A stretch of DNA of 64,000 nucleotides. Source: Callorhinchus milii. Lineage: Eukaryota. Below the pieces are notes generated by a model, which saw nothing but the letters and a program-made list of their open reading frames with translations, made no database searches and had not been told where the DNA came from. Shown piece by piece: positions 2,402-63,285 of this stretch. Within the stretch, counting starts at the first letter, position 1. Each line of letters starts with the position of its first letter. Location: contig NW_024704742.1 of the NCBI RefSeq assembly GCF_018977255.1, positions 43,216,001 to 43,280,000 on the forward strand. The letters are read 5' to 3'. A program made the translations under genes and the position numbers.

Positions 2402-2692
2402 GGAGTCCTGTAGCTCAGTGGTTAGAGCACTCGCAAGCAAGAGACCCGGGTTTGATTCCCTGTAGGGCAAGTTTCCTTACTCCACACTCCTGATAATATT
2501 CCCTCAAGAAAAAAAACAATAATAAATTGATCACTTCAATCCACTACTGTTTGTGGGACACTGCTGTGCGCAAGTAGCTGCCGCATTTCACCCACAAATA
2601 TACAGTTAATTCACTTTACAGTACATTCTATGAAGCGCTTTGAGACGCCTAGAAGACGTGAAAAGCGCTATACCAAATGCAAGGATTATTAT
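2402..2692 (+). mobile_element. tRNA-derived SINE family A, short form
   Basis: A box TAGCTCAGTGG, B-box-like GGTTTGATTCC, Deu-like core ctgtttgtgggacactgctgtgcgcaa, L2-like tail gtgaaaagcgctata..aaatgcaagg(att)n. Confidence 0.92.
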
Positions 2693-3334
2693 GGTGAAAA
2701 TGAGCAGGGTTTTCTCCCTACTCTCAATAAATCATTTGCAAGAAGACAGATCCACTTAAACCTCTTACCATTTCAGGAAAACCTGTAGTGGAAAATCAAA
2801 GGGTGCTGGTTCCCGTGACTGGATGACATGATTCAGAGTATAGTAAAGTTATACCAGTCAGTCAGTCGTCATAACAAAGCTGCCTACAGACGTCAAGGGA
2901 CCTCATCGCAGGTCTTTCCTTCTGCCAGTTCCTGCAGCTGTCTGTTCCTTGTCACAATTCCAGGTTTTACACCATATGACTTGGATTGCAGACATCTCCA
3001 GCTGCATATTTCACTTGGCAGTACATTCTCTGCCAATTTTGCAATTGTTTTACCGGCTGATAACAGTGTCTGCCAGATAAAACTCAATCCTGAATGGCGC
3101 CTATAGTACTGGCAGCAGCTTTACGCCACCAGTGTGGTTCAAGTAGGGTAATTGGGGTTAGGGAGGATTTTGTTTGAGAAGTTACTGTCCAGAACAGGAT
3201 ATGTATTTGTTTTAAAAGTACTTCTCTCATATCTGGCTATAGCACTGTGTTCAGCAGAGTTGAACTCATGTTGTAGTGATGTTGGATGGGGAGAGGAAAG
3301 GAAATCACAAAAATGTTTTGCCATTAATCATCCA

Positions 3335-4068
3335 CCCTGAAACTTCCATTAGGGTTAATTTCCACATGTACACAGATGACACCCAAATCTGCTTTCCACT
3401 CCACTCTTAATTCCAGATCCACTGATGTTCTATCCATTTGGCTGTCAAACATCAAGACCTGAATGAGCCTCAGAGTTTTACAACTCAGTATGAATACATG
3501 GAAGCCATACTTGTTAGCTCCAACTATTATCTCCTCGTTTCTGATTGACCTCCTCAAGGTCTCTTTCTCAAGCTCACCGAACAGGGTGGAACTTTGGTAT
3601 CCAGTTTGATCCTTAGCTTTTCTTTCTCCCTCACGTCTGGTCCCTAATCAAGACTGCTTTTCTTCACATTAAGTTTTCGCCTCGTCCACATTGCGTTTTC
3701 ACCTCTTTTTCACACCAAATGCTACTGAACGCTTACCTTCACCTTCATTAACATCCGCCTACATTTGTCTAATTTTAGTCGATTAGACTAGTCTCGGTTG
3801 TCTCCCTAGCTCCACCATCCATTGACCCAAATTTCACAGTAACCACACTTTACAGTATATCCTACGAAATGCTATGAGATATCATCCTGTTTATCAAAGG
3901 TAAGGATTGTTATTATTATTATTCTGATCCATAAGCTTTAATTCATCCAAAACGCCACTGCCCACATGCTCACCCACAGCAAACTCTGTGCTCCACTGTC
4001 CCCCTGTCTGCCCACCAGATCAATTTCAACCTCCTCACCCTCACCTATAAATCCCTTCACACCTTAAT
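3335..4068 (+). mobile_element. Old L2 LINE ORF2 remnant (RT region), interrupted by a SINE 3' fragment at ~3830-3923
   Basis: aatttccacatgtacacagatgacacccaa encodes NFHMYTDDTQ (degenerate YADD); downstream sequence parallels L2 at 46140-46750. Confidence 0.8.
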
Positions 4069-4074
4069 ACTGGT

Positions 4075-4393
4075 GGAGTCCTGTAGCTCAGTGGTTAGAG
4101 CACTCGCTTTGCAAGTGAGAGACCTGAGTTCAATTCCAGGCAGAGGGGGAAACCTTGGGCAAGTTTCCCTACTCCACACGCCTAATAATAATCCCTCCAA
4201 AACCAAAAACAATAATAAATTGGTCATTTTCAATCTACGACTGTTTGTGGGACATTGCTGTGCGCAATTGGCTGCCGCGTTCGCCCACAAATATACAGTC
4301 AATTCACTTTACAGTGTGTTCTGTGAAGCGCTTTGGGATGTCCTCCTGACATGAAAAGCACTATATTAAATGCAAGGATTATTATTATTATTA
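4075..4393 (+). mobile_element. tRNA(Ala-like)-derived SINE family A, short form, young copy
   Basis: Intact head with anticodon arm ctcgc-tttgcaa-gtgag (TGC), A/B boxes, Deu-like core, (ATT)n tail; nearly identical to the inverted copy at 10911-11233. Confidence 0.95.
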
Positions 4394-5208: not shown

Positions 5209-5575
5209 GAAGTCCTATAGCTCAGTGGTTAGAGCACTCGCCTTGCTAGCGAGAGATCTGGGTTTGATTCTCGGCAGGGCGAAATGTTGGCCAAGTTTCC
5301 TTACTTCACACGCCTCTGTTTACCTAGCACTAAGTAGGAACCTGGTTGTTACTCGATTGGCAGGTCACTTTTCCAGGGGTAATAATTCCTTCAAAAAACA
5401 ATAACAATAAATGGGTCACTTCAATCCACAACTGTTTGTGGGACATTGCTGTGCGTAATTTGCTGTTGCATTTCACCCACAAAATACACAATCAATTCAC
5501 TTTACAGTATATTCTGCACTTTGAGATGTCCCAAAGACACGATAAAGCACTAGATCAAATGCAAGGATTATTACA
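5209..5575 (+). mobile_element. SINE family A, long form (extra ~65 bp central segment); directly follows the (ATT)n tail of a SINE fragment at ~5098-5205
   Basis: Same head and tail as the short form, plus ctctgtttacctagcactaagtaggaacctggttgttactcgattggcagg..., also seen at ~31302-31365. Confidence 0.92.
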
Positions 5576-7316: not shown

Positions 7317-8429
7317 CATGGGGGAAATCTTATTGTGGTGGCAGAGGGCATGGCTGATGTGCTGCAAATCAGATTGTCATCCACTCAAACATGGCCCCAT
7401 AAAAGTGAATCAAAGAATAGCTCATGAATTTTTAAGGGGAGTTTTTCATATTAATAAAGAGGCGTCATCGCACAATGGGAATTACAGATCTTTCAAATCT
7501 CTCCTCGTCTATTCCATCAGGATAAAGTAGCCATGGGGTGCCAGCGGGATAATATAGAACATAAAATACAAACTTACAGTGAAATAGTTAATTGTTTGGC
7601 TTTGGTGACTAGTTTTATTTGACTTGCCTTAAATTGTGAGGGCCTCCACCAATATGTTCCCATGCATTTTTTTAAAAAAGACTCCTTAGAATACAAAAGC
7701 ATGGTAGTTATGGTACAATCAAGGGTATTCATAGACGATTATTTTTTAACTAATTTGTAGCCTGGTGACCCAAAGTCTGAATTAGACTGTTCATTTGGAC
7801 CAGCCATGGTGACTGAGGGGGAAGAAATGGGAGAATCTCTCTCTGTTATAATTTTTTTTAGAAAAGGCCAGTCCTTCACAAAGTGTGTGTTGGTTGGGGT
7901 GGATGGGTGGGGAAGGGCTGTCATCCATGTTATTTTAATTGGCTTAATTTCAGCCACGTTTGAGTTTTATCCCAAAGGATGAATGGCAGGGTTATCTGGA
8001 GAATCACTGGCCAGGGCAGCAGGAGAAACTCCCTTCTCTTTTTGAATAGTGCCAGGGGATTTAACATCCAAGATTGCCTTCTCCAAAGGACAGCACATAT
8101 GATGCTCCCCCAGTACTGTTCAAAGTCCCAACATTAGGCTTGAATCCCCAACCTTCTGAGGCAGAGATGACAGTGTTACTGATTGACCCAAGCTGAATAT
8201 GTATTACACATTCCCGTTTCAATTTGCTATGTGCTTGCCACAGTATTCTACTCATCTTAATGGGATTTGAGGCAATCTTTGAAAAACCTGCAGCAATGAA
8301 ATAATATTGTGTAACAAAATATTGAAGTTTGTGCTACAATATTGCTTCAGGGATTCCAGTTAGATGTACAATTTAGCAAAACCAGCTCCTAACCACAGAA
8401 ACTTTTGTAAAGTTCATTTCCAACCATCC

Positions 8430-8845
8430 ATTAATCTGTTTCAAAATGACACTGGTTCCCAGGATTAGAAAAACAAGCTACAGGGAATGACTAGATAAAC
8501 TAGGGCTCTTCAGCCTTCAAAAGAGACATCTCAGAGGGAACTTTGTTGAGGTTTTCAAGATTCTAATGAATACAGACAGTAAACCTAGAGCAATATTTTC
8601 AGATATGTCAGCAGCACAAGAGGTCACAGGTTCAGGGATATGAAGGACAATTTTAAGGTAGACACCAGGAAGTATTTCTTTACATTGAGGGTAACTAACA
8701 GCTTGATCAGGTTACCAGGAAAGTGCCCAAGGCCAAGACACTGAGATTTTTAAAGAACGTTTCATGTCATAATGAGAAGACTTTATGGTCTAAATTCTGG
8801 TAGGATGAGATCAAATGAGTCAAACTCCCCTTGTGATCCTGCAAA
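8430..8845 (+). mobile_element. Old CR1 3' fragment
   Basis: ctagggctcttcagccttcaaaagagacatctcagaggg encodes LGLFSLQKRHLRG, the CR1 ORF2 C-terminal motif. Confidence 0.8.
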
Positions 8846-10910: not shown

Positions 10911-11233
10911 TAATAATAATAATAATTCTTGCATTTGATATAGCGCTTTTCACGTCAGGAGGACGTCCCAAAGCGCTTCACAGAACACACTGTAAAGTGA
11001 ATTGACTGTATATTTGTGGGCGAACGCGGCAGCCAATTGCGCCCAGCAATGTCCCACAAACAGCCGTAGATTGAAAATGACAAATTTATTATTTTTTTTT
11101 GGTTTTGGAAGGATTATTATTAGGCTCTGTGTGGAGTAAGGAAACTTGCCCAAGGTTTCGCCCTCTGCCTGGAATTGAACTCAGATCTCTCGCTTGCAAA
11201 GCAAGTGCTCTAACCACTAAGCTACAGGACTCC
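10911..11233 (-). mobile_element. SINE family A, short form, young copy
   Basis: Reverse complement nearly identical to 4075-4393; (AAT)n at left end. Confidence 0.95.
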
Positions 11234-17949: not shown

Positions 17950-18620
17950 GTCCACAGATGTTCTCAGTGATTCCAAACATTATCATGATGTCAAAGCTGT
18001 AAACCACCAGGATGAATCCAGAAATCATGAATTTACGTCATGAGGAAAATTTTAAAAAAACTGACAAAATGCAAAATACTGCAGATACTAAAAACAGAAG
18101 TTGCTGGAAACACTCAGCAGGTCAGGCAGCATCTATTGAGAAAGGAAAGTGAGTCAACGTTTTGGGTCCACGACCCTTCGTCAGAACAGAAATTTTGACG
18201 AAGGGTCGTGAACCCGAAACGTTGACTCACTTTCCTTCCTCCACAGATGTTGCCTGCTGAGTGTTCCCAGCGACTTCTGGTAAAAAAGCTGAGTCTGTTC
18301 TCTTTGCAAAAAAAGAAATTTTAAGATGATCCAATTGAAGTTTTCCACAATTAGACAGAAAACTGACAAAGCTGATGTAGGCAAATTGTTCACTGTGGTG
18401 AAAGGTTCAGATACCAGGGGACACACGTTAATAATGTGCTAGCATGCTTAGACTTGTGGAATAAATAATCATTTCAGCTGACAGTATAAATGGGTTCAAC
18501 AGCCAACAAGCCACATTTCAAGAGTGAGAAAGGAGAGAGGATTATGGTGAGAAGCTGGCTTGGTGGGGTTAAGAATCAAAAAGCAATCAGTTTCTTCAGG
18601 TTTAATGTCCTTTTCCTATT
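17950..18620 (+). mobile_element. Old CR1 3' remnant hosting a palindromic element
   Basis: Sequence across the insertion reads ..HEEN.KKLSLFSLQK.. and ..DPIEVF.., the degenerate CR1 ORF2 C-terminus. Confidence 0.65.
18065..18280. mobile_element. Palindromic Penelope-like non-autonomous element with hammerhead-like motifs
   Basis: ~90-bp inverted arms around 18188-18193; (C/T)TGACGA-A-GGGT..ACCC-(G/A)AAACGTT on both strands; flanking direct repeats taaaaaa(a/g)ctga at 18053-18064 and 18281-18292. Confidence 0.8.
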
Positions 18621-24519: not shown

Positions 24520-25090
24520 TGACAGCGAGTTTCAGACGAAGAAAGCTCATTGACCTGTTTGATCTCATCCTTCCAGAATACTTAACCTACTGTCTTCCCA
24601 TTGCAGCATCAAACTGCTTCTTAAAAAAAGGCAAAATACTGCAGATGCTGGAAATCTGAAATAAAAACAGAAATCGCTGGGAACACTCAGCAGGTCAGGC
24701 TGCATCTATGGAGATGGCAGCATCTGACAAAAGCTCAAATGTTAACTCACTTTCCTCTTTCCATAGATGCTGCCTGACCTGCTAAGTGTTCCCAGCAACT
24801 TCTGTTTTTATATTTTATGCTTCTTAAACAAGTCCATTATTGGAGCCTAAGCGGCACTTCCTACTTCTAGTTGTTGACTGTCCTCAATATAAAGAAACAC
24901 CTGTTTGCGTCTAAAATTCTAAAATTGCCATTTACAGCCCAGAACCTGTGCCTTTTGTTCTGCTTCCTTGGCCCATCTGATAGTATTGTTTATTTGCTCA
25001 ATCCAATTTAGCATTTTATATACCCTATTAAATCCATCTGAGATGTCTCATTTCAAGGTCAGAAAAGCCTAACTTCTCCACTTGAACCTC
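24520..25090 (-). mobile_element. Old CR1 3' remnant hosting the second palindromic element
   Basis: ctgagatgtctcatttcaaggtcagaaaagcctaacttctcc is the reverse complement of an EKLGFSDLEMRHL-type CR1 motif. Confidence 0.6.
24626..24817. mobile_element. Palindromic Penelope-like element, copy 2 (centre deleted)
   Basis: Same arms as 18065-18280 (aaaatactgcagatgctgg...ctcagcaggtcagg / cctgacctgctaagtgttcccagc); perfect 11-bp flanking repeat tgcttcttaaa at 24615-24625 and 24818-24828. Confidence 0.82.
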
Positions 25091-29127: not shown

Positions 29128-29619
29128 ACAACAACAACTTGGATTTATATAGCACCCTCCACGCCGGATGGCATTTCAGAGCGCTTCACAGTAATGGATC
29201 CCAGGGCTGAGCCAGGTGGAGGGGAAGAAGGTGACCAAAGGCGCGGTCGAAGATAAAGGTCTTCAGCCAAGACCTGAAAATAGGAAGAGAGGGGACGAGG
29301 CGAAGGGAGTGAGGAAGAGAGTTCCAGAGCCTTGGGGCGTAATGGCTGAAGGCACGGCCGCCAATGGTGGAGCGGAGGATTCATGGGACAAGGCGGAGGC
29401 CAGACCCGGTGGAGCGAAGGCAACGGGCACTGTTGTGAGGAGAGAGGAGGTCAGAGTGATAGGGGGGTGCAGAGGAATGGAGGGATTTGAAAACAAGAGT
29501 GAGGATCTTGAAGTCGGTCCTCTCTGGGACAGGCAGCCAGTGCAGTCCGGCAAGGACTGGGGTAATCGCGGAGCAGAGTTTGGTGCAGGTAAGACTGCGG
29601 GCGGCAGAGTTCTGGATGA
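29128..29619 (-). mobile_element. 5'-truncated L2 inserted in the CR1 RT domain
   Basis: (AAC)n tail; ORF piece IQNSAARSLT..LHWLPVPERTDFKILTLVFKSLH; flanking ctata at 29123-29127 and 29620-29624. Confidence 0.93.
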
Positions 29620-31192
29620 CTATACCCAAGTCCAGGTCATTTATATACATCAAAAACAGCAGTGGTTCCAATACTGAACCCTGGGGATATCATTGAACAA
29701 TTCCCTCCAGTCAGAAAAACAATCAGTCTCCACCAGCCTCTGCTTTCTGTCTCCCAGCTATTTCTGTATCCATGCTGCCACTGTCCCTTTAATATGGTGG
29801 GCTTCTATTTTGCTTACAAGTCTCTTATGTGGCCCTTTATCAAGCTCCTTTTGAAAATCCATATAAACTCCATCAACTGCACTACCTTCAACCACCCTGT
29901 AGAGTACACTATATCAAAAATTTCTATCAGGTTTGTTAGACTTTTGCCTTAATTTGCCTTTAACAAATCCATGTTGGCTGTCCTTTATTAACACATTTTT
30001 CTAAGTGAAAATTTATTTTGTCCTGGATTATAATCTCTAGAAATTTCCCCACTACTGATGTTAGGCTGACTGGCCTGAGACTCCCGGGTTTATCCTTCTG
30101 CCCCCTTTTGTACAGGGGAGTAACGTTTACAACCCTCCAGTCTGCTGGCACCACCCCGGTGTCCAAGGAGGATTGAAAGATTGTGGCCAGAGTCTCCGTT
30201 ATTTCCCCTTCACTTCCCTCAGTAACCTAGGATGCATCCCGTCTGGACTGGGTGAGTTATCTATCTTGAGCACCGACAACCTTTTTAGTACCTCCTCTCG
30301 GTTTATTCTTATTTTATCGAATTTCTCTACCCTCTCCTCCGATATTGTGGCATTGGCTATATGCTCTTCTTTTGTGAAGACAGATGCAAAGTACTCATCC
30401 AGTACGTCAGCCATGCCCTCTGCCTCCACAAGAAGATTTCCTCTTTGGTCCCTAATTGGACCCACCCTACCTTTGACTAACCTTTTATTCTTTATACGCT
30501 TATAAAATACTTTAGGGTTCTCTTTTATGTTACCCACTAATCTTTTCTCATACAATCTCTTTGCCTCTCTTATTTGCTTTTTCAGTTCTCCTCTGTACTT
30601 TCTATATTCTATTTGATTATCTTCTGTATTTTGGACCTGACACTTATCATAAGCCGCCTTTTTCTGTTCTATTTTAATTCCAATTTTCCTTATTCATCAA
30701 GAGAGGTTTGGATGCCCTACCTTTCCCCTTTGTGGGAATGTATTTGTTCTGTCCCCGAACTATCTCCTCCTTGAAGGCTTCCCATTGCTCGTTAGCTGTT
30801 TTACCTGCCAATTTTTCTTTCCAGTCCACTTCGGCTAGATCCCTTTTTAACTCATTGAAATTAGCCGTCTTCCAGTTGAGGAATGACTGTGAGCCTTCAA
30901 GGTAGGCAATCTTTTTACTCAACGTCCTCCATAACATATCTAGTTTCACCAGATGAAGGAGGAGGAAGGAGGCCTTGAGTGGGTGGTAGAAATTATCTTT
31001 TAAAGTGGCTGCTCTGAGTCTAGATACTACCATATTATAAGAAATAAATTGTTTCTTAACATCATGCACGTCACTACTACTGTGTGGAATTGGTTGCCGC
31101 ATTTCACCCAGAAAAAAAGTCAATCCACTTTATAGTATATTCTGTGAAGTGCTTTGAGATATCTCAATTACGTAGTTTAGTATCTTAGCAAT

Positions 31193-31572
31193 GACACGCC
31201 TGTAGCACAGTGGTTAGAGCACTCGCCTCACAAGCGAGAGGCCCTGGGTTTGAATCTCAGGCAGAGCGAAATGTTGTGCAAGTTTCCTTATTCCACACAC
31301 CTCTGTTTATCTAGAAGGAAATAGGAACCCAGTTGTTAGTCGATTGGCGGATTGCTTTTCCGGGGGTAATAATCCCTTCAAAAATTGAAATAAATAAATA
31401 ATAATTTGGCCACTTCAATCCACGACTGTTTGTCAGACACTGCTGTGCGCAATTGGCTGCAGCATTTTGGCCCCAAAATACAGTCAATTCACATTACAGT
31501 AAATTCTGTGAAGCGCTTTCTCAAAGTCGTGATAAGGCACTATATCAAATGCAAGGATTATTATTATTATTA
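31193..31572 (+). mobile_element. SINE family A, long form
   Basis: Head cctgtagcacagtggttagagcactcgc, central ctctgtttatctagaaggaaataggaacc segment, Deu-like core, (ATT)n tail. Confidence 0.92.
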
Positions 31573-35114: not shown

Positions 35115-36715
35115 CACTGTACAGATTTCAGATCCGACCTGGGGTCAGGGAGGGAGAAGCGAGGGGAGGGGATGACCGATGGCATGGTCGAAGAGGAGGG
35201 TTTTGAGGCGGGACTTGAAGAGGCTAAGGAGGGGGCAAGGCGGAGTAATTGGGGGATGGCATTCCAGAGGTTGCGGGCAGAGTGACTGAAGGCTCTCCCG
35301 CCAATGGTGGGGCGGGTGGGTCGGGGGACGTGGAGCAGGCCAGAGCCGGCTGAGCGGAGGGAACGGGCGGGTTGGCAGGGGGTTAGGAGGTCGCAGAGGT
35401 AAGATTGGGCGAGGCCATGTTGGGCTTCGTAAGTGAGGACCAGGATCTTGAACTGAATCTTCTGAAGGATAGGGAGCCAATGGAGTCAGGCGAGAATGGG
35501 GGAAATGGGGTCATAGAGTTTGGTGCAGGAGAGGACACGGGCTGCAGAGTTCTGGATTATCTGCAGCCTGTGGATGGAGGAGTTGGGAAGGCTGACAAGC
35601 AGGGAGTTTACATAGTCGAGCCTGGATGTGATGAAGGCACGAACGAGAGTTTCAGCGGCCTGAGGATTGAGGTAGTGGCGGAGTCGGGCGATGGTGAGGG
35701 AAGGTAGAGCGGGTCATGGCTTGGATGTGGGGAAGAAAAGACAGTTGAGGGTCGAACAAGACACCTAGGTTCCTGACCGGCTTGGTGAGTTGTAGTGTGC
35801 AACCATCGAGGTTGATGCTGGTAGAGTCACTAATGACTCGGACGCTGGTGCGAGCCAATCAGGAGGGCCTCAGTCTTGTTCACATTCAACTGTAGGAAAT
35901 TTGCCCTCATCCAGGACTTGATGTCCGACACGCAGCCTGTCAGGACAGCAGTGATCCAGGAGTTGAGGGTGGAGGCAGAAAGATAGAGTTGGGTGTCATC
36001 CGCATACATGTGGAAGTTGACCCCATGTCTGCAGATGATGTCACCAAGGGGGAGCATGTAGATATTAAAGAGGAGAGGGCCAAGGGCAGAGCCCTGGGGG
36101 ACACCAGACATGACAGTGTGGGGGCTGGAAGAGAAACCGTTAGAGGCAACAAAGTGGAAACGGTGAGAGAGATAGGAATCGAACCAGGCAAGGGCAGGTC
36201 CGCGAAGATTAAGTAAAGAGGAGAGGCAGTAGTCGACAGTGTCGAAGGCGGCAGAGAGGTTGAGGATGCCAAGGAGGTGGAGGGAGCCCTGATCACAGAT
36301 GTTCAGAATGTCATTAGTGACTTTGGCCAGGGCAGTTTCTATGCTGTGGACAGCGTGGAAGCCAGATTGGAGGGGTTCAAAGAGGGAATGGCGAGAAAGG
36401 AAGGAGCAGAGCTGGGACTCAACGATTCATTCCAGGACCTTGGAGAGGAATGGGAGGTTAGAGATGGGGCAGTAGCTGGAGAGGAGGGAAGGGTCCAGGG
36501 AAGGATTTTTCAGGATGGGGATGATGACGGCTGTTTTTAGGGGAGTGGGAACTGAACTGGTGGACAAGGAGAGGTTGATGACATCGGACAAGAGAGGGGC
36601 CAGAAGGTGGAGCTGAGGAATGATGAGAGAGGTGGGGATGGAATCGAGGGAGCAGATGGTGGATTTGAGTTTGCGAACGAGGGCGCTGAGGGAAGAGGGA
36701 GATGTAGGGTCGAAG
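35115..36715 (-). mobile_element. 5'-truncated L2 LINE (ORF2 RT remnant)
   Basis: ORF 35830-36111 SGVPQGSALGPLLFNIYMLPLG..FHMYADDTQLY..NFLQLNVNKTE; VRNLGVLFDPQLSF; FKSRLKTLLF. Confidence 0.96.
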
Positions 36716-45359: not shown

Positions 45360-45671
45360 ATAATAATAATAATCCTTGCATTTGATATAGCGCTTTTCAC
45401 ATCTTCTAGACGTCTCAGAGCGCTTCAGGAATATACTGTAAAGTGAATTGACCATATATTTGTGGGCGAAATGTGGCAACCAATTGCGCACAGCAGTGTC
45501 CCACAAACAGTTGTGGATTGAAAACGACCAATTTATTGTTGTTTTGTTTTGGAGGGATTATTATTAGGCGTGTGGAGTAAGGAAACTTGCCCAAGGTTTC
45601 ACCCTGTCTTGAATTGAACCCAGGTGTCTCGCTTGCAAGGCGAGTGCTCTAACCACTGAGCTACAGGAATC
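45360..45671 (-). mobile_element. SINE family A, short form
   Basis: Reverse complement of head (gagtgctctaaccactgagctacagg) and (AAT)n tail. Confidence 0.94.
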
Positions 45672-45844: not shown

Positions 45845-47108
45845 GGACAAGTCGAAGGGACTCCAGGATGGTGTTCCTGGACCTCTCCGCCGTGTTCGAC
45901 ACAGACAATCACGCCATCCTCCTCCACCGCCTTTCCTCCGTCATCCACCTCAGTGGGACCACACTCACCTGGTTTGAGCCCTACCTCACAAACTGCTAAC
46001 AGTACATCTGCATAAACGGCTTCTCCTCCCACTCTCACCCGGTCACCTGCGGGGTACCCGAAGGATCCATCCTTGGCCCCTTTCTCTTTCTGATCTACAT
46101 GCTCCCTCTCGGGGATGTCATCCGCAGACATAGGGTACACTTCCACATGTATGCAGATGACACCCAATTCTACTTTTCCACCTCTCTTTGCAACCCCCCC
46201 CCAGTCCCCTGATCTTCTGTCAGCCTGCCTGTCAGATCTCAGGGGCTGGATGAGCACAAACTTCCTTCAGCTGAACGTTAACAAGACGGAAGCCATACTC
46301 TTTGGCTCTGATCAACGTCTAAATTCTCATGGTTCTCACCTCCTCCACCTACCCGACCTCCCCCTACAACTCTCCGAACTCGTACGCAACCTAGGCTTCA
46401 GGTTCGACCCCCAATTATCCTTCCTCCCCCACATCCGGTCCCTCATCAGCACTGCCTTCTTCCACCTCCGACATATTGCCTGTCTCTGCAAATATCTCAC
46501 CTCAAAAGCCGCTGAAACTCTGGTCCATGCCTTTGTCACCTCTCGGCTGGACTATTCAAACGCCCTCCTCGCTGGTCTCCCATCCACTACCATCCATAAA
46601 ATCCAATTCATTCAGAACTCTGCCACCCACATTCTCACCCGTACTAAACTCCGCTCCCCGATCACCCCAGGCCTTGCCAGATTGCACTGGCTCCCTATCC
46701 CAGAGAGAATTAATTTCAAGATCCTCACCCTCGTATTCAAGTCCCTGCACTTCTCTGCACCTCCCTACCTCTCTGACCTCCTCTCTCCTTAGCACAGTAC
46801 CCATTGCCTTCATTCCTCCAGGTATGGCCTCCTCCTTGTCCCCCAAGTCCTCTGCTCCACCCTCAGCAGCCGTGCCTTAAGCCACTACACCCCGAGGCTC
46901 TGGAACTGTCTTCCTCACTCCTTTCATCTTGTTCCCTCCCTTCCCATTTTCAGGTCTCTGCTGAAGACCTTTCTTTTCGACCACGCCTTTGGTCACCTTC
47001 CCACCCCTCCCCCTGGCTCGGTCCCGGGATCCTAAACTGTAAAGCACTCTGAGACGCCGTCCGGCATGGAGGGCGCTATATAAATCCAAATTGTTATTGT
47101 TGTTGTTG
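45845..47108 (+). mobile_element. 5'-truncated L2 LINE (ORF2 RT and C-terminus)
   Basis: GVPEGSILGP and FHMYADDTQ; ORF 46115-46792 NFLQLNVNKTE..VRNLG..LVHAFVTSRLDYSNALLAGLP..LHWLPI; tail gggcgctatataaatccaaa(ttg)n. Confidence 0.97.
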
Positions 47109-57559: not shown

Positions 57560-57966
57560 AAATTCAAGATCCTCATCCTCACCTACAGGGCCATTCACGG
57601 CCTTGCTCCCTCCTACCTCCCTGACCTACTATCCCCTACCTACCGGCCCGTACCCTCCGTTCAACCGCCCTACCATCGGTGGCCGGGCCTTCAGCCTCTC
57701 AGCCCCCAGGCTCTGGAACTCTATCCCCCAGTACCTTCGCCGCTTCCTCCCTTTCCTCCTTCAAGGCCGGTCTCAAGACCTTTCTCTTTGACTGTGCCTT
57801 CAGCTCCCCTCTCGACTCTCTTCCCCCTCCTCGCTCCCTCCCTTCCCTCCCCTCACCCTGACCATTTCCCCCCTGCTCGGGTCCTGACCCAACTGTACAG
57901 CGCCTTGGGACATCCTCTCGACGTGAAAGGCGCTCTATAAATGGAATCTTGTTGTTGTTGTTGTTG
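57560..57966 (+). mobile_element. L2 3' end
   Basis: KFKILILTYRAIHGLAPSYL; GGRAFSLSAPRLWNSIP; (TTG)n tail. Confidence 0.94.
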
Positions 57967-62721: not shown

Positions 62722-63285
62722 CAACAACAACTTGTATGTATATAGCTCCCCTCATGCAGAGTAGCATTCCAGATCGCTTGACAGTGGTGGAGCATGACAA
62801 CGAGCGAGGGGGAGGTGGGAGGTGATGGTCGATGAGGAAGGTCTTCAGGCACGATCTGAAGATGGGGAAGGAAGGGGCAAGGTGGAGGGATAGAAAAAGA
62901 ATGTTCCAGAGTTTTGGGGTGTAGTGGCTGAAAGTGCGACCACCAATGGTGGAAGAGAGGGCACGAGGGACACGTAGGAGGCCGGAGCCAGTTGAGTTGT
63001 GGCAGCGGGTTGTGGGGTAAGCAGGTCAGAGAGGTAGGGAGGTGCCAAGGCATGAAGGGATTTGGAAACGAGTGTGAGGATCTTGAGGTCGATCCTACCG
63101 GCGATAGGGAGCCAGTGGAGCCTGGCTAGAACTGGTATGATGGGGGTACGGAGTTTAGTACGGGTGAGTATGTGGACGGTGGAGTATTGGATCAGCTGAA
63201 TTTTGTGGATGGTGGAACTGGGGAAACCAACAAGGAACACATTTGAATAATCAAAGCAGGAGGTGATGAGCGGGTGCATTTGCAG
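62722..63285 (-). mobile_element. 5'-truncated L2 LINE
   Basis: ORF 62845-63279 ITSCFDYSN..LARLHWLPIAGRIDLKILTLVSKSLHALAPPYLSDLL; (AAC)n tail. Confidence 0.94.

Follow-up and report, generated by a model that had tools for sequence, protein, structure and literature searches.

A palindromic insertion in Callorhinchus milii, a probable fossil of head-to-head Penelope-like element ends with minimal hammerhead motifs

Complex insertions of Penelope-like elements (PLEs), in tandem or inverted arrangement and with pseudo-LTRs and a one-sided tail, are said to have been described by Evgen'ev and Arkhipova in 2005. Human L1 reportedly undergoes twin priming (credited to Ostertag and Kazazian, 2001), where the second strand also primes and an inverted segment within one target-site duplication (TSD) is the outcome. 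The minimal hammerhead ribozymes (min-HHRs) published for metazoan PLEs cleave poorly in vitro, and only as dimers (PMC4209133), and the hammerhead of an Anolis PLE cut only with the element's own protein (PMC11167929). In that same study both DNA strands are cut and then extended by the PLE protein in purified form, and reverse transcription starts at two adjacent internal sites which bound the tail (PMC11167929). For PLEs, a tail of 30-40 bp at only one end of the insertion and an inverted, 5'-truncated copy are also described (PMC8557442).

Here we describe an insertion found in a window of Callorhinchus milii DNA, the window being the whole stretch that was analysed (64,000 nucleotides). 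The insertion is a near-palindrome, and each of its arms carries the remnant of a minimal hammerhead motif. We found that this feature is very probably the fossil of one insertion event of an endonuclease-bearing PLE, in which two terminal segments were left head to head. The kind is already described, as minimal hammerheads in PLEs, inverted truncated copies and one-sided tails are all on record. In the literature searched, no paper reports such hammerheads with PLEs for Callorhinchus or for other cartilaginous fish, bar one preprint on retrozymes, which lists one chondrichthyan genome that has them (Li, Clavereau & Pollet 2026). The text of PMC4209133 and 2 of its 3 supplement files name no cartilaginous fish. 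The family described here would add another vertebrate lineage in which a minimal hammerhead travels with PLEs.

The insertion in the window and its hammerhead remnants

The original prediction had described a Penelope-like, palindromic insertion between 12-bp direct repeats. Both the palindrome and the repeats were recovered, the latter at the positions given in Table 1. In the inverted-repeat analysis of the window, 18123-18186 and 18193-18256 are 89% complementary over 64 nt, while 18095-18121 and 18253-18279 are 93% complementary over 27 nt; compared directly, the right arm is 85% identical to the left over 92 nt. The family boundaries seen in other copies fall exactly at 18065 and 18280, so the 12-bp repeats that adjoin them constitute a TSD. 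The 34-nt family form of the tail has suffered an internal deletion in the window copy, seen as a gap of 14 alignment columns. The predicted fold of the whole insertion is one long hairpin (-144 / -146 kcal/mol). A search of the 64-kb window with the 30-nt core of the + arm returned its own site and the - arm and nothing else, and 100 shuffles gave 0 matches, so that the likeness is well beyond chance.

Table 1. Features of the insertion, in window coordinates
Feature	Position	Strand	Remarks
Whole insertion, near-palindrome	18065-18280		between the 12-bp TSD copies
TSD, left copy	18053-18064		TAAAAAAACTGA; 12 bp; ends exactly at the family's left boundary
TSD, right copy	18281-18292		TAAAAAAGCTGA; 12 bp, 1 mismatch to the left copy
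Left arm, probable PLE 3' end, 5'-truncated just upstream of the hammerhead	18065-18187	-	reaches the distal (long) 3' end
PLE 'tail', on the left arm only	18065-18089	-	based on the 29-copy alignment
Junction filler AGAAAT between the arms	18188-18193		not conserved among copies
Right arm, same probable PLE 3' end, tail-less	18194-18280	+	ends near the proximal (short) 3' end
Minimal hammerhead remnant, left arm	18153-18187	-	fails the min-HHR descriptor
Minimal hammerhead remnant, right arm	18191-18227	+	fails the min-HHR descriptor

The two motifs were re-read letter by letter, and on both strands they stand at the coordinates first reported for them. On the + strand, TTGACGA (18195-18201) is followed by A (18202), GGGT (18203-18206), a 5-nt loop, ACCC (18212-18215), GAAA (18216-18219), CGTT (18220-18223) and then GAC. 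The - strand reads gtt (18187-18185), CTGACGA (18184-18178), A (18177), GGGTC (18176-18172), GTG (18171-18169), GACCC (18168-18164), AAAA (18163-18160), CGTT (18159-18156) and again GAC. Hence the + arm carries C3>U at 18195 and, through G>A at 18211, has lost the fifth pair of helix II, with GAAA intact; the - arm carries G12>A at 18163, with CUGACGA and the helix II strands GGGUC/GACCC intact. Helix I keeps 3/4 pairs on each arm. Cleavage would be expected after 18223 in the + arm, and between 18156 and 18155 in the - arm.

One core change on each arm, C3>U on the + arm and G12>A on the - arm, is predicted to be disabling, and neither arm passes the min-HHR descriptor. Both changes would fit the decay of CpG, as C>T at 18195 and as C>T on the + strand at 18163, which gives G12>A. 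Moreover, as the motifs lie on opposite strands, a single transcript contains only one sense hammerhead and cannot form a dimer. We found no ORF or other coding sequence within the window copy, and this, together with the mutation of both cores, makes the insertion inert. The earlier assumption that the copy is probably inactive agrees with its sequence, where one hammerhead box is broken per arm. Judged by its letters, then, the window copy appears to be dead and an ordinary example of a kind of insertion already described. The further statement that the insertion sits in an old CR1 was not confirmed: its flanks gave no tblastn match to a LINE ORF, nor to the PLE ORFs, and their matches in the genome are only ~20-30, short and weak (71-93% identity), none of them identified as CR1.

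The window has other features of note. At 24626-24817 there is a second pair of the same element, from the A-U variant lineage treated below, flanked at 24615-24625 and 24818-24828 by an 11-bp TSD (TGCTTCTTAAA); its left arm has a tail and its right arm has none, and both arms are truncated, with no CUGANGA box left. Fragments of a LINE reverse transcriptase that has a conserved C-terminal region occur at 35240-36210, 45946-46918, 29300-29620, 62903-63279 and 57560-57788. Six matches to the Rfam tRNA model score above the gathering score (2404-2470, 4081-4143, 5211-5282, 11165-11227, 31203-31260 and 45599-45670), several of them partial, and they look like tRNA-derived SINE heads and not like tRNA genes. 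Over 18148-18231 the hairpin can be aligned to two Rfam microRNA-precursor models, the plant family MIR1033 and mir-7883, which have words in common with it around helix II.

The family hammerhead and its Penelope-like relatives

The family was searched for in the species' own genome (0.99 Gb, 1762 contigs), where a first look gave at least 3307 candidates, 40 of which were scored. The self-match of the arm query is 100%, against 80-88% identity in other copies. In the genome search, + matches extend as far as query position 23-30, and - matches only to about 50. The alignment comprises 29 distinct copies, picked by similarity to the query, after 9/38 loci were removed as duplicates. Flank repeats resembling TSDs, scored under a strict rule at the family boundary, measure 8-15 nt and occur in 17/29 copies, the window copy having 12 bp. 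The distal 21-mer of the arm has 4496 exact matches in the genome (control 0). For architecture we sampled 50 arms, all from one contig and taken in positional order, 30 through an intact 36-mer of the motif and 20 through the distal 21-mer. An unrelated repeat of ~330 bp, with best copies 91-97% identical, was met in both orientations near sampled arms (L047, 38-362 and 621-950, and many loci).

The consensus of the 29 copies reads CUGACGA-A-GGGUC-GUG-GACCC-GAAAC-GUU, followed by GACUCAC. It had been predicted, from two arms with one deviation each, that the family would have CUGACGA, GAAA and a palindromic AACGUU, and the alignment restored all of them. The intact 36-mer, allowing at most one mismatch, occurs 855 times in the genome (426 forward and 429 reverse), and its reversed control 0 times. 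The consensus has all the features of a min-HHR, namely the CUGANGA and GAAA boxes, the unpaired A, G10.1-C11.1, a palindromic 15.2-16.2 and a 4-bp helix I, which in long copies is formed by AGUU/GACU. In this sense, the family motif belongs to the minimal type-I class, with a helix II of 5 bp, no helix III and the palindromic AACGUU.

A second variant of helix II, A-AGGUC-AUC-GACCU, is present in 732 copies (control 0), and its first pair has changed from G-C to A-U; this lends support to helix II, for which an absence of covariation had been named as evidence against a hammerhead. Among the first 100 of 1402 core matches, tallied by hand, the 10.1-11.1 pair is G-C in 56, A-U in 24 and G.U in 18, so that it can form in 98/100; the other 2 have A/C, which does not pair. 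The G.U class retains the loops of the first variant, and would fit decay of the CpG at C11.1-G12. The change in helix II is probably compensatory between subfamilies, in about two evolutionary events, without broad covariation.

The search with hammerhead models that had been proposed for the family gave a divided answer. With an E limit of 10, none of the Rfam hammerhead models (types I, II, III, HH9 and HH10) matched either the window copy or an intact-core copy; the missing hairpin of helix III is a likely cause of this silence. A min-HHR descriptor, written from the features in Cervera & de la Pena 2014 (PMC4209133) with helix I included, matched the family loci (195,851 bases) 22 times, and none of 20 dinucleotide-preserving shuffles gave a match. 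In the minimum-energy structure of a cofold, two strands pair mainly through helix II and the double hammerhead is not formed. Altogether, the arms appear to bear a minimal hammerhead of the PLE type, a putative ribozyme.

Endonuclease-bearing PLEs are defined by a single frame in which a reverse transcriptase (RT) precedes a C-terminal GIY-YIG endonuclease. The arms had been expected to link to such an element and not to a DNA transposase, and their long relatives (L077, L071 and L072) make this link. Upstream of the arm, 6/30 members of the 36-mer set have over 100 nt in common, in some as much as ~500 nt. L077 is a longer copy whose RT-like and endonuclease-like frames share the strand of the motif and end ~360 nt upstream of its hammerhead remnant. 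A search with its RT fragment gave 69 proteins with E values up to 1e-5, the nearest source-named ones being from sharks and rays, and the protein relatives align to L077 colinearly (aa 446-887 on 2483-3787, 41.6% identity, E 4e-85). In L072 the motif at 8457 follows the end of the endonuclease (8038-8196) on the same strand, at a distance of 260 nt. The upstream sequence of L071 holds two halves of a GIY-YIG domain with an unrelated LINE fragment between them, and scores 17.4 bits for GIY-YIG vs a cut-off of 22.6. Pfam called no family on four PLE ORF fragments of L077, and because of this silence and of the sub-threshold score of L071, the RT and endonuclease calls rest on homology to intact proteins of other organisms. 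A PDB sequence search with the RT and linker/endonuclease fragments returned nothing meaningful. The PLE ORFs in the long relatives are broken by stops and by the LINE insertion, and neither an intact full-length copy nor a pLTR-ORF-pLTR unit is present among the sampled family loci.

As RT and GIY-YIG lie upstream on the same strand, the arms are taken as the 3' terminus of an endonuclease-bearing PLE, of which they would represent the last 90-125 nt, and which is abundant. Thus, the insertion was rightly seen as Penelope-like with inverted terminal segments, these being PLE 3' ends placed head to head. Two candidates in this part were rejected. L039 and L040, retrieved by a whole-genome Pfam search for GIY-YIG as the autonomous partner, belong to a different PLE family and have no arm within 1.5 kb. 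An open frame in the arm, considered as the N-terminus of the element as in the Anolis element PAc, gave nothing better than E 0.1 by blastx against the 69 relatives. As observations in their own right, L039 (G000:C1:120031410-120034652) and L040 (G000:C12:9525870-9529085) represent a second PLE family, with RT-like frames and GIY-YIG at 32.1 bits (cut-off 22.6); the LINE family with fragments in the window also interrupts the PLE copies L071 and L077; and in L077 (4249-4445) helix II of the hammerhead is gone by internal deletion, and the terminal segment has an internal inverted duplication before the tail.

Pairs of arms, the one-tail rule and the origin of the hairpin

Of 50 sampled arms, 22 have an inverted partner at most 80 nt upstream and 28 are single. 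The first 100 of the 4496 matches to the distal 21-mer include 10 (-,+) pairs at spacings of 58-176 nt. Among these 100, no (+,-) pair was found at up to 300 nt, nor any two arms on one strand at up to 1 kb. The same listing contains same-strand arms 3.7-6 kb apart, such as two on contig C1 near 11.85 Mb, which are candidates for a pseudo-LTR organisation. The junction between arms spans 0 to 18 aligned columns and is different in 29/29 aligned copies, and the inverted arms have inner ends anywhere between reference positions 7 and 111. Sense arms taken by the distal 21-mer reach the 5' edge of the hammerhead in 12/20 cases and stop inside or 3' of the motif in 8/20; the notion that arms always start at this edge was therefore discarded as a bias of ranking. 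Singles, pairs and long copies (100 to ~500 nt of common upstream sequence) coexist. Such variable junctions and arm lengths, along with the coexisting singles, indicate that each hairpin is a separate insertion and not a propagating unit. Pairs are always head to head and made afresh at each insertion, and they are not tandem retrozyme-like arrays; an autonomous PLE family left every hairpin as a double insertion that was 5'-truncated and dead on arrival.

The outer ends of the arms are of two discrete kinds about 35 nt apart, one near reference position 104-113 and the other at 143, the longer one including the tail. In this small sample we found the tail on exactly one arm in 19/22 pairs, on both in 0/22 and on neither in 3/22; if arms were independent, the probability of at least 19/22 one-tail pairs would be ~3e-4. 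The tail-less arm ends at 101-113 in 15/19 one-tail pairs, and tail-less single arms end mostly at 104-116. The window pair follows the rule, its left arm having the long end (with the internal deletion) and its right arm the short one.

A possible course of events begins with both DNA strands being cut with a stagger of 12 bp, which would leave two 3'-OH primers. Each primer would then start reverse transcription of the element RNA at one of two adjacent internal sites: a start at the distal site would produce the arm that bears the 34-nt tail, and a start at the proximal site the tail-less arm. Both cDNAs would end early, and a few extra bases would link them. The proposed role of the hammerhead in active elements is cleavage of the element RNA, as a dimer or helped by the element protein. 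From the two kinds of ends we infer that in each pair both strands served as primers, with a different start site for each. One may go further and see in the pairs the in vivo footprints of a symmetric two-strand reaction, carried out by a dimeric PLE particle where each protomer uses a different start site, although we put this forward only tentatively and hold it to be somewhat doubtful. If it were true, it would account for the presence of the tail on exactly one arm (19/22, never on both), and the thousands of pairs here would be a ready data set for a step seen so far only in vitro. The in vitro work on PAc showed no strand preference between the two start sites, and does not by itself predict the one-tail rule (PMC11167929). 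The regularity of one tail per pair constitutes a modest lead, and would allow the model of PLE insertion from two strands and two start sites to be tested cheaply on genomic data.

Another course, in which a single priming event suffices, is that one cDNA of the same PLE, primed at the distal site, folds back on itself and is copied into the inverted arm. It would account for the observed palindrome, in which one arm is full and the short centre varies, but gives no reason why the second arm should end at 101-113, the discrete short end of the singles, in 15/19 one-tail pairs; furthermore, the arms often differ widely in inner length, and copying of the cDNA on itself would need a later deletion to explain it. 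We consider this course unlikely. The original prediction had taken the insertion for a short non-autonomous ribozyme-bearing retroelement, that is, a discrete hairpin of ~216 bp with two hammerheads which is transcribed and copied whole by the PLE enzyme. In its favour, either transcript would end in a sense arm with the RT start region, and many copies match the query at full length with 80-88% identity. However, this full-length look is an effect of BLAST ranking, by which the first matches all appear as full hairpins; the junction differs in 29/29 copies, the inner ends lie anywhere from 7 to 111, single arms make up 28/50 and long copies coexist. As a propagating unit, this element was not supported, and we regard its existence as very improbable.

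Two further readings set the PLE aside as the source of the hairpin. The very stable predicted hairpin and the Rfam scores for MIR1033 (47.2 bits) and mir-7883 (42.8 bits) could suggest a hairpin RNA gene used by the host, such as a microRNA or siRNA precursor; both scores are nevertheless under the gathering scores (70 for MIR1033 and 50 for mir-7883), and the family consists of thousands of decaying copies whose centre is not conserved, which makes such a gene scarcely credible. A near-perfect palindrome with flanking direct repeats also recalls a MITE, whose terminal inverted repeats would resemble a hammerhead by chance. To this reading we assign a next to negligible probability, since the flank repeats of 8-15 nt have no fixed length, the two ends differ in length by 34 nt, the centre is variable, and the long copies continue upstream into RT/GIY-YIG coding sequence. 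The insertion of a PLE with two head-to-head termini thus stays as our preferred reading. For the genome this copy, dead and one of thousands, carries little weight: it should be annotated as a Penelope-like fragment, and labels such as ribozyme gene or microRNA hairpin should be avoided. It may also be that some annotated microRNA hairpins are head-to-head ends of retroelements.

Comparison with known systems

The min-HHRs of metazoan PLEs (PMC4209133) share with this family both boxes, the unpaired nucleotide after position 9, G10.1-C11.1, the absence of helix III, a palindromic 15.2-16.2 and the 4-bp helix I. They also share its mode of occurrence, as thousands of mostly solitary truncated copies, and pairs on opposite strands were noted there for Schistosoma. 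Helix II differs, with 5 bp here vs 7-8 bp in the Schistosoma families (PMC4209133), and the window copy differs in addition by its core mutations.

Non-LTR retrozymes are likewise short hammerhead sequences related to the pseudo-LTRs of PLEs, as Cervera & de la Pena 2020 (PMC7229834) has it. In that account they are head-to-tail tandems that give circular RNAs, whereas the arms described here are placed head to head, and among the first 100 of them none has a same-strand neighbour within 1 kb. The complex PLE insertions of Craig et al. 2021 (PMC8557442) are alike in that an inverted 5'-truncated copy abuts a direct copy and the tail is one-sided; the difference is that here both copies are cut to ~100 nt and only the hammerhead-bearing terminus remains.

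In PAc, the Poseidon-clade PLE of Anolis carolinensis (Frangieh et al. 2024, PMC11167929), the hammerhead also lies a few tens of nt upstream of two RT start sites, although PAc and the family here are unrelated in sequence at the nucleotide level. The start sites of PAc bound a tail of 30-40 nt, and the tail here has 34 nt (PMC11167929). From the cut site to the end of the insertion we counted ~65-73 nt (short) and 104 nt (long), and for PAc the distance is ~85-92 nt (PMC11167929). PAc differs in showing no strand preference in vitro, while in the genomic pairs the tail is found on one arm in 19/22.

The twin priming of human L1 joins two non-overlapping parts of the RNA, whereas here both arms copy the same terminal segment.
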